The notes below the pieces were generated by a model. It was given only the letters and a program-made list of their open reading frames with translations. It had not been told where the DNA came from and ran no database searches. Positions 62,971-64,000 of a stretch of DNA of 64,000 nt are shown here, piece by piece. Origin of the DNA: Escherichia coli O157:H7 (lineage in GTDB: Bacteria > Pseudomonadota > Gammaproteobacteria > Enterobacterales > Enterobacteriaceae); the NCBI RefSeq assembly GCF_013167455.1, contig NZ_CP038328.1, one strand, 5' to 3'. Each line of letters starts with the position of its first letter. Positions within the stretch are counted from its first letter, which is position 1. Position numbers and translations under genes: made by a program.

Positions 62971-64000
62971 TTAGAACTGATAAACCAGACCTAAAGCGAC
63001 AATATCATCGGTAGAGATGCCGTTGGCAGCGTAGAAACTGTCATCTTCATCCAACAGGTTGATTTTATAGTCAACATAAGTGGACATGTTTTTATTGAAA
63101 TAGTAAGTCGCGCCAACATCGGCGTATTTAACCAGATCTTTATCATCAACACCTGCCGGGTTGTCTGCACCACCGGCAGCGTGCAGGTCACGGCCTTTAG
63201 ACATCAGGAAAGAGACTGCCGGACGCAGACCAAAATCAAACTGGTACTGTGCAGTGACTTCAAAGTTCTGGGTTTTGTTTGCAACAGCATAATCGCTGTC
63301 GCCAAACGGGGTCATATTACGCGTTTCTGAATACATGGTTGCCAGGTAAATATTGTTAGCATCGTATTTTAGCCCAGCAGTCCACGCGTCTGCTTTATCA
63401 CCACCCGCCGCAGTATGGTTAACCTGGTCATTGGTGCGGTCAGAAGAGGTGTATGCCGCACCAGCGCTAAAGCCCATGCCTAAATCATATGTTGTGGAAA
63501 GACCCCAGCCGTCACCGTTTTCATGGCGAACATCACGTCCGTTGTTGGTGCCTTCCTGACCATTACTGGCACCTTCGTTGTTACCTTGATACTGCACCGC
63601 GAAGTTCAGACCATTTACCAGACCGAAGAAATCAGTATTACGATAAGTCGCGACGCCATTGGCACGACCAGTCATAAAGTTGTCTGCATTGGTATAAGAG
63701 TCACCGCCAAATTCAGGCAGCATATCGGTCCAGCCCATAATTACGTCCGTAATCGAAAGAACCGTAATCTGAAAATTTCAGTCCGGCAAATGCCAGACGG
63801 GTCCATGACTGGTTTTTTGAAGATTCAGTGTTGTTTGCCTGAATATTGTATTCCCATTGACCGTAGCCAGTAAGTTGATCGTTAATTTGGGTTTCGCCTT
63901 TAAAACCCAGACGCGCATAGCTCTGGTCGCCATCTTTCGCTGAATTATCAGAAAAATAATGCAGGCCATCAACTTTGCCATACAGATCTAATTTGTTGCC
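62971..64000 (-). pseudogene. ompN: Porin OmpN (OmpC family), frameshifted near 63730-63740; 5' end beyond the window
   Basis: C-terminal frame (62971..63738) ends ...[12 protein letters not shown]; the N-terminal part (...[18 protein letters not shown]...[10 protein letters not shown]) is in another frame and stops just upstream of the junction. Confidence 0.65.

Follow-up and report, generated by a model that had tools for sequence, protein, structure and literature searches.

The ompN gene that closes the window (the whole stretch of 64,000 nucleotides of Escherichia coli O157:H7 DNA analysed here) is almost certainly a unitary pseudogene, which was created by one 20-bp deletion, has become fixed in typical O157:H7 strains, and whose loss was probably neutral. 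The pseudogene as such is already known and annotated. The ompN gene of strain EDL933 was reported in 2006 as a pseudogene truncated to 123 amino acids (PMC1489923), which is also the length predicted here. The Sakai gene (ECs_1998) is annotated as "pseudogene", and PGAP labels ompN as "frameshifted" in PA20, EDL933 and 17B6-2. The detail added here is the exact lesion, its status as the sole change in the gene, its placement on a branch of the lineage and a candidate marker. In the literature searched, supplementary tables aside, no paper was found that deals with this 20-bp lesion or with where it falls in the stepwise model of O157:H7 evolution. Likewise, in the O55:H7 genome paper the word "frameshift" is absent from the main text, and the pseudogene passages retrieved do not name ompN.

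The deletion and its junction

The ompN gene is encoded on the minus strand, fills the final 1,030 bases of the window and overruns its end. Its first 84 nt, with the start codon and the greater share of the signal peptide, fall beyond the window end. The natural stop codon TAA is located at 62971-62973; position 62971 is its final base, and the first-pass annotation, which had given this position as the boundary of the gene, was right in its coordinates. A change of reading frame had also been claimed near 63730-63740, and the translations confirm it and place it at 63734-63736. When the minus strand is read from 64000, the translation begins with GNKLD and later runs into LDRYAA and then TGA, while the +1 frame is open through to the natural end of the protein, ALGLVYQF and the stop, at 62971. 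The 5' part of the gene in its original frame (63736-64000, minus strand, gene nt 85-349) is identical to that of PA20, EDL933 and Sakai. It is followed by the out-of-frame tail LDRYAA with a premature TGA (63713-63733, minus strand, the TGA itself at 63715-63713). The 3' two-thirds of the gene (62971-63735, minus strand, nt 370-1134 of the intact gene), now in the +1 frame, show no substitution against the allele of the O55:H7 strain CB9615. Directly 3' of the ompN stop codon a terminator-like GC-rich hairpin followed by a T-run is seen at 62944-62962 on the minus strand, as a pattern match from a consensus scan only.

It had been suspected that a short stretch is missing after the residues GRNYG. 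The lesion was defined by alignment of the window, the complete PA20 gene and the intact alleles of K-12 MG1655, 07_3337 and RM9975, where exactly 20 bp are missing in one 20-column gap and there are zero other indels. The same length and position of the deletion were obtained with PV15-279 and five further intact 1134-nt alleles. Alignment to K-12 ompN had been set beforehand as the test of the suspected frameshift, and the outcome that would speak against it, a continuous frame, did not appear. At the junction (63735-63736, minus strand) the intact sequence TATG[GCGTAATGTACGACATCGAA]GGCTGG is reduced to TATGGGCTGG in the window; in the wider context, AATTATG[GCGTAATGTACGACATCGAA]GGCTGGACC of the intact gene corresponds to AATTATGGGCTGGACC. 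The deletion removes gene nt 350-369, that is codons V118, M119, Y120, D121, I122 and E123 together with parts of Gly117 and Gly124. One G is ambiguous, and the junction can be written as 63736/63735 or equally as 63735/63734; the microhomology amounts to this 1 nt only. Slippage between nearby CGTAAT direct repeats was considered as a cause of the deletion and rejected because it would take out 11 bp and not the observed 20 bp. Since 20 is not divisible by 3, reading moves into the +1 frame after codon 117, six wrong codons follow and the premature TGA is reached seven codons on, giving 123 amino acids instead of 377. This agrees with the first-pass opinion that a deletion at this place would inactivate OmpN.

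The same opinion had allowed for a sequencing error, and one window alone is indeed insufficient to dismiss the idea that the bases are missing through an error of sequencing or assembly and that ompN is really intact. A 70-nt junction query was uninformative, as intact genomes matched it as two pieces, and a 40-mer centred on the junction, which cannot seed a match in the intact gene, was used instead. This 40-mer is present in 294 of the 5,426 complete E. coli genomes, in one copy each and always in the chromosome, and its carriers include Sakai, two EDL933 assemblies and Xuzhou21. The same junction has thus been read in independently sequenced genomes by many laboratories and on many platforms, and annotators have called the gene broken in Sakai, EDL933, PA20 and 17B6-2. 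Moreover, homopolymer errors concern 1-2 nt and not 20 nt of complex sequence. The chance that the lesion is an artefact can be regarded as next to nil.

The truncated porin

The two fragments are still easily recognised as parts of one porin. The 5' fragment matches the Pfam family Porin_1 (PF00267) over profile positions 3-92 (E = 5e-44) and the 3' fragment over positions 98-337 (E = 7e-93). Only the few positions between 92 and 98 are covered by neither, and the intact OmpN of PV15-279 covers positions 1-337. Apart from this homology to the general bacterial porins, expected of an OmpN orthologue, the gene keeps its conserved position between uspF and micC/ydbK (nifJ): uspF adjoins ompN within the window, and the identical PA20 locus has the order nifJ-micC-ompN-uspF, the same as in K-12. 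What the gene lacks is a single open frame leading from the signal peptide all the way to the C-terminal Phe, as the frame is broken at 63735/63736 and stopped at 63715-63713. Judged by its sequence, the window ompN is a porin gene by descent and not a functional member of the family. Its K-12 MG1655 orthologue (b1377), a "quiescent" general porin in the same position (uspF-ompN-micC-ydbK), differs from the allele of the O55/O157 lineage by 14 substitutions in 1134 nt. The K-12 gene has the 20 bp and encodes 377 amino acids, whereas the window allele stops after 123. The best match among solved structures is OmpK37 of Klebsiella pneumoniae (PDB 6v78, E = 9e-180), which the literature calls the OmpN orthologue; it is an intact porin of another species, and its sequence is conserved across the deletion site.

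The alignment with solved porins begins at OmpN residue 22, from which a signal peptide of about 21 amino acids can be deduced. The 123-aa precursor would then be processed to about 102 amino acids, of which 96 would be native mature residues out of 356. Such a product would be deprived of most of the 16-strand barrel, of the PEFGGD segment of the constriction loop and of the C-terminal YQF. The YQF motif is required for recognition by the outer-membrane assembly machinery. A fragment without most strands, PEFGGD and YQF should thus be unable to form an OmpN pore, and the downstream two-thirds of the gene would be both out of frame and devoid of an export signal. We infer that the OmpN fragment has no function and is probably degraded. 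Transcription of the locus may still go on, and the N-terminal fragment could be made, because in PA20 micC is intact, no further decay of ompN has occurred since the deletion and the terminator-like hairpin has been kept. The micC sRNA gene lies beside the dead ompN just past the window end (positions 3572-3692, minus strand, of the PA20 locus L001; Rfam RF00121, 125 bits).

It could be argued that a working porin is still made, either by a programmed +1 ribosomal frameshift or by two cooperating fragments, as about 60 nt (63778-63713) are common to the two frames and neither half shows any other damage. Nevertheless, no recognised +1 shift site was seen by eye in the overlap (63713-63778), and the ancestral and sister alleles are single-frame, which points to a recent lesion and not to a conserved device; the gene was accordingly rejected as a candidate for programmed frameshifting. 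A shifted product would still be 6-7 barrel residues short, and the 255-aa downstream reading frame, with an internal ATG at 63738 as its start, has no signal peptide and could not be exported as one part of a split porin. The protein data point in the same direction. In a proteomic study, OmpN was 4- to 9.6-fold lower in EDL933 than in O26:H11 and PMK5 (O26 and O103) STEC strains (PMC9731836). A porin restored by frameshifting or assembled from two parts is considered highly improbable, and the single inactivating deletion stays the preferred reading. The authors of the proteomic study take the OmpN difference for differential expression and discuss OmpN as a candidate adhesion factor; the passages retrieved make no mention of the pseudogene status of EDL933 ompN (PMC9731836). 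The pseudogene is the simpler explanation of the lower OmpN level in EDL933.

Distribution and timing in the O157:H7 lineage

All serotyped carriers of the junction 40-mer are O157 or O157:H7. Many O157:H7 genomes match the 1.1-kb ompN stretch at 100%, and of the 5,409 records with a match to it, 297 reach an identity of 99% or more. Non-O157 genomes align over 1,121 bases against 1,101 of the query, which is the same 20-bp difference. The genes of Sakai (ECs_1998) and EDL933 (EDL933_RS11030) are base-for-base identical to the part in the window, share its deletion and are likewise flanked by uspF and nifJ/pfo. At every base but the deletion, the allele of typical O157:H7 (window, PA20, EDL933 and Sakai) equals that of CB9615. 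The disabling lesion is therefore the only difference from a close relative, and it recurs inside the lineage (the 294 of 5,426 genomes) and is absent outside it, the gene being intact in O55:H7, 493/89, LSU61, PV15-279 and F3113, as expected of a lineage-specific unitary pseudogene. The deletion is taken as fixed in typical O157:H7, since no typical strain with an intact lineage allele was encountered among the best-matching records inspected.

The intact allele of PV15-279 was used in a further search, and full-length genes of 1134 nt with 99.8-100% identity were found in eight O55:H7 genomes, in the sorbitol-fermenting O157:H- strain 493/89, in LSU61 and in F3113. The genes of CB9615, 493/89, LSU61, F3113 and PV15-279 were each translated and have 377 open codons and an annotation as functional; the seven O55:H7 genomes besides CB9615 gave single-piece 1134-nt matches. 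The alleles of CB9615, 493/89, LSU61 and PV15-279 have the lineage bases 44G, 313T and 441T, as does the window, but in contrast to the window they are uninterrupted over 1134 nt and annotated as functional porin OmpN. Private changes are G34A in PV15-279 and F3113, C1035G in 493/89 and T95C in LSU61. The stepwise model summarised by Ogura and co-workers assigns O55:H7 to complex A1, the sorbitol-fermenting German clone to A4 and beta-glucuronidase-positive O157:H7 (PV15-279) to A5; from A5 arose A6, to which typical O157:H7 belongs (PMC6256406). LSU-61 is regarded as an intermediate (PMC7175801), and F3113 is placed in the GP clade only by the SNP that it has in common with PV15-279. Because the gene is intact in O55:H7, 493/89, LSU61, PV15-279 and F3113, the origin of the 20-bp deletion is assigned, on comparative grounds, to the branch leading to typical (non-sorbitol-fermenting, beta-glucuronidase-negative) O157:H7. 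As a sequence marker of the typical O157:H7 clone, the junction 40-mer is thus a candidate. The uidA frameshift, which is behind the beta-glucuronidase-negative phenotype, is also a small lesion fixed on the branch to typical O157:H7. Both are small frameshifts on the same branch, but the loss of uidA gives a diagnostic phenotype, unlike that of ompN, for which we know of no phenotype.

Two observations concern genomes apart from this pattern. In strain TR01 (NZ_CP033605.1, Turkey), labelled O157:H7, ompN is intact (locus L006, 1-7134) and has non-lineage bases at positions 44 and 313; there is no prophage between uspF and ttcA, and the 7-kb nifJ-ompN-uspF-ttcA-dbpA stretch is about 0.8% divergent from the O157 lineage. 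TR01 would either contain a large recombinant patch or be a non-member of the O157:H7 clone. In the pig isolates UTME-14 (NZ_CP157090.1) and UTME-10 (NZ_CP157104.1), ompN is matched in two pieces spanning about 1.9 kb, under which an IS1-like element IS1B family transposase is annotated; this would be an independent disruption of ompN in another lineage.

The loss of OmpN would be tolerated because the porin is poorly expressed. OmpN is described as quiescent in E. coli, its promoter and the neighbouring micC sRNA respond together to beta-lactams and to depletion of sigma-E, and plasmid-expressed OmpN gave no beta-lactam entry (PMC5745476). It is hardly expressed, and with OmpF and OmpC in place its loss is most likely neutral and may have been fixed by drift or hitch-hiking as the typical O157:H7 clone emerged. 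One may also suppose that the very same lesion was selected, for example because it closed a way in for colicins or phages that use porins in the bovine gut, and that it aided the success of typical O157:H7. The deletion does lie on the same branch as the dominant clone, ompN was independently hit by IS1 in UTME-10 and UTME-14, and according to Dam and co-workers (data not shown) plasmid-expressed OmpN supports killing by colicins E2 and E3 (PMC5745476). On the other hand, OmpN is barely expressed under the conditions tested, OmpF and OmpC, with which colicin sensitivity is similar (PMC5745476), are retained as other porin genes, at least 80% of ompN is retained in 5,390 of the 5,426 genomes, and a single fixation event on a branch with many other changes offers no statistical signal. 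Selection for the loss is consequently held to be unlikely. Bolder and fairly remote is the proposal that the loss of ompN was adaptive and helped the typical O157:H7 clone to supplant its relatives, both the beta-glucuronidase-positive and the sorbitol-fermenting ones, for instance because colicins or phages met with in cattle lost an inducible way into the cell; in a weaker version, the 123-aa fragment or a still-transcribed mRNA beside micC would have acquired a regulatory role. Under the preferred reading of a probably neutral deletion, the loss of ompN matters little on its own. Still, typical O157:H7 strains are without the minor porin OmpN, which bears on comparisons of their outer-membrane proteome with that of other E. 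coli, and on such comparisons of porin-dependent entry of antibiotics, colicins or phages.

The prophage junction elsewhere in the window

It was found that the window is not collinear with Sakai throughout. Only about the last 6.7 kb aligns well with Sakai and EDL933 (98%), and the prophage beyond uspF is unlike Sakai Sp10 over most of its length. In the window the asr-ynfM...ynfA flank is joined to uspF-ompN by a single lambdoid prophage, with the junction region at about 36900-56000. From 1 to about 36,900 the window matches 17B6-2, first over the asr-ynfM...ynfA flank and then into the ynfA-side lambdoid prophage, of which the left part is covered. The stretch 33,000-52,000 equals ERL05-0623 at 100%, where the prophage sits between ynfA and ydfJ, and from about 53,500 on the match is with the other prophage, the one beside uspF-ompN, at its right end. 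In 17B6-2, ERL05-0623, Sakai and EDL933, whose flanks were inspected, the ynf and ompN flanks each have their own prophage. Compared with the window, PA20 and 17B6-2 have an additional 163-166 kb between the two flanks, which are on the same strand; in FRIK1989 the distance is about 250 kb and the strands are opposite. The stretch 44,000-64,000, within which the crossover probably lies, has no 100% match in the 5,426 complete genomes, the best being FRIK1989 with 99.7%.

Recombination between related prophages is known to generate structural variants of O157:H7, and the junction looks like the outcome of such an exchange between two related prophages, be it an inversion or another kind of rearrangement. 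Alternatively, the assembly may have joined the two sides through repeated prophage sequence. Directly beside uspF, where the prophage has its right end, three tandem genes for DUF1076/NleG-family type III effectors are expected by coordinate transfer at about 59815-61815 on the plus strand, and in the Sakai annotation they are nleG2-2, nleG6-1 and nleG5-1. In ERL05-0623 the prophage on the ynfA side terminates in the same three genes, as slightly different alleles, which would provide homology for recombination between the two prophages. The integrase gene beside ynfA is annotated in 17B6-2 as frameshifted and partial, and it corresponds by collinearity with the 17B6-2 locus L010 to about 16460-17210 on the minus strand of the window. 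As the window is 99.7% identical to 17B6-2 at this integrase, the ynfA-side prophage is probably unable to excise.
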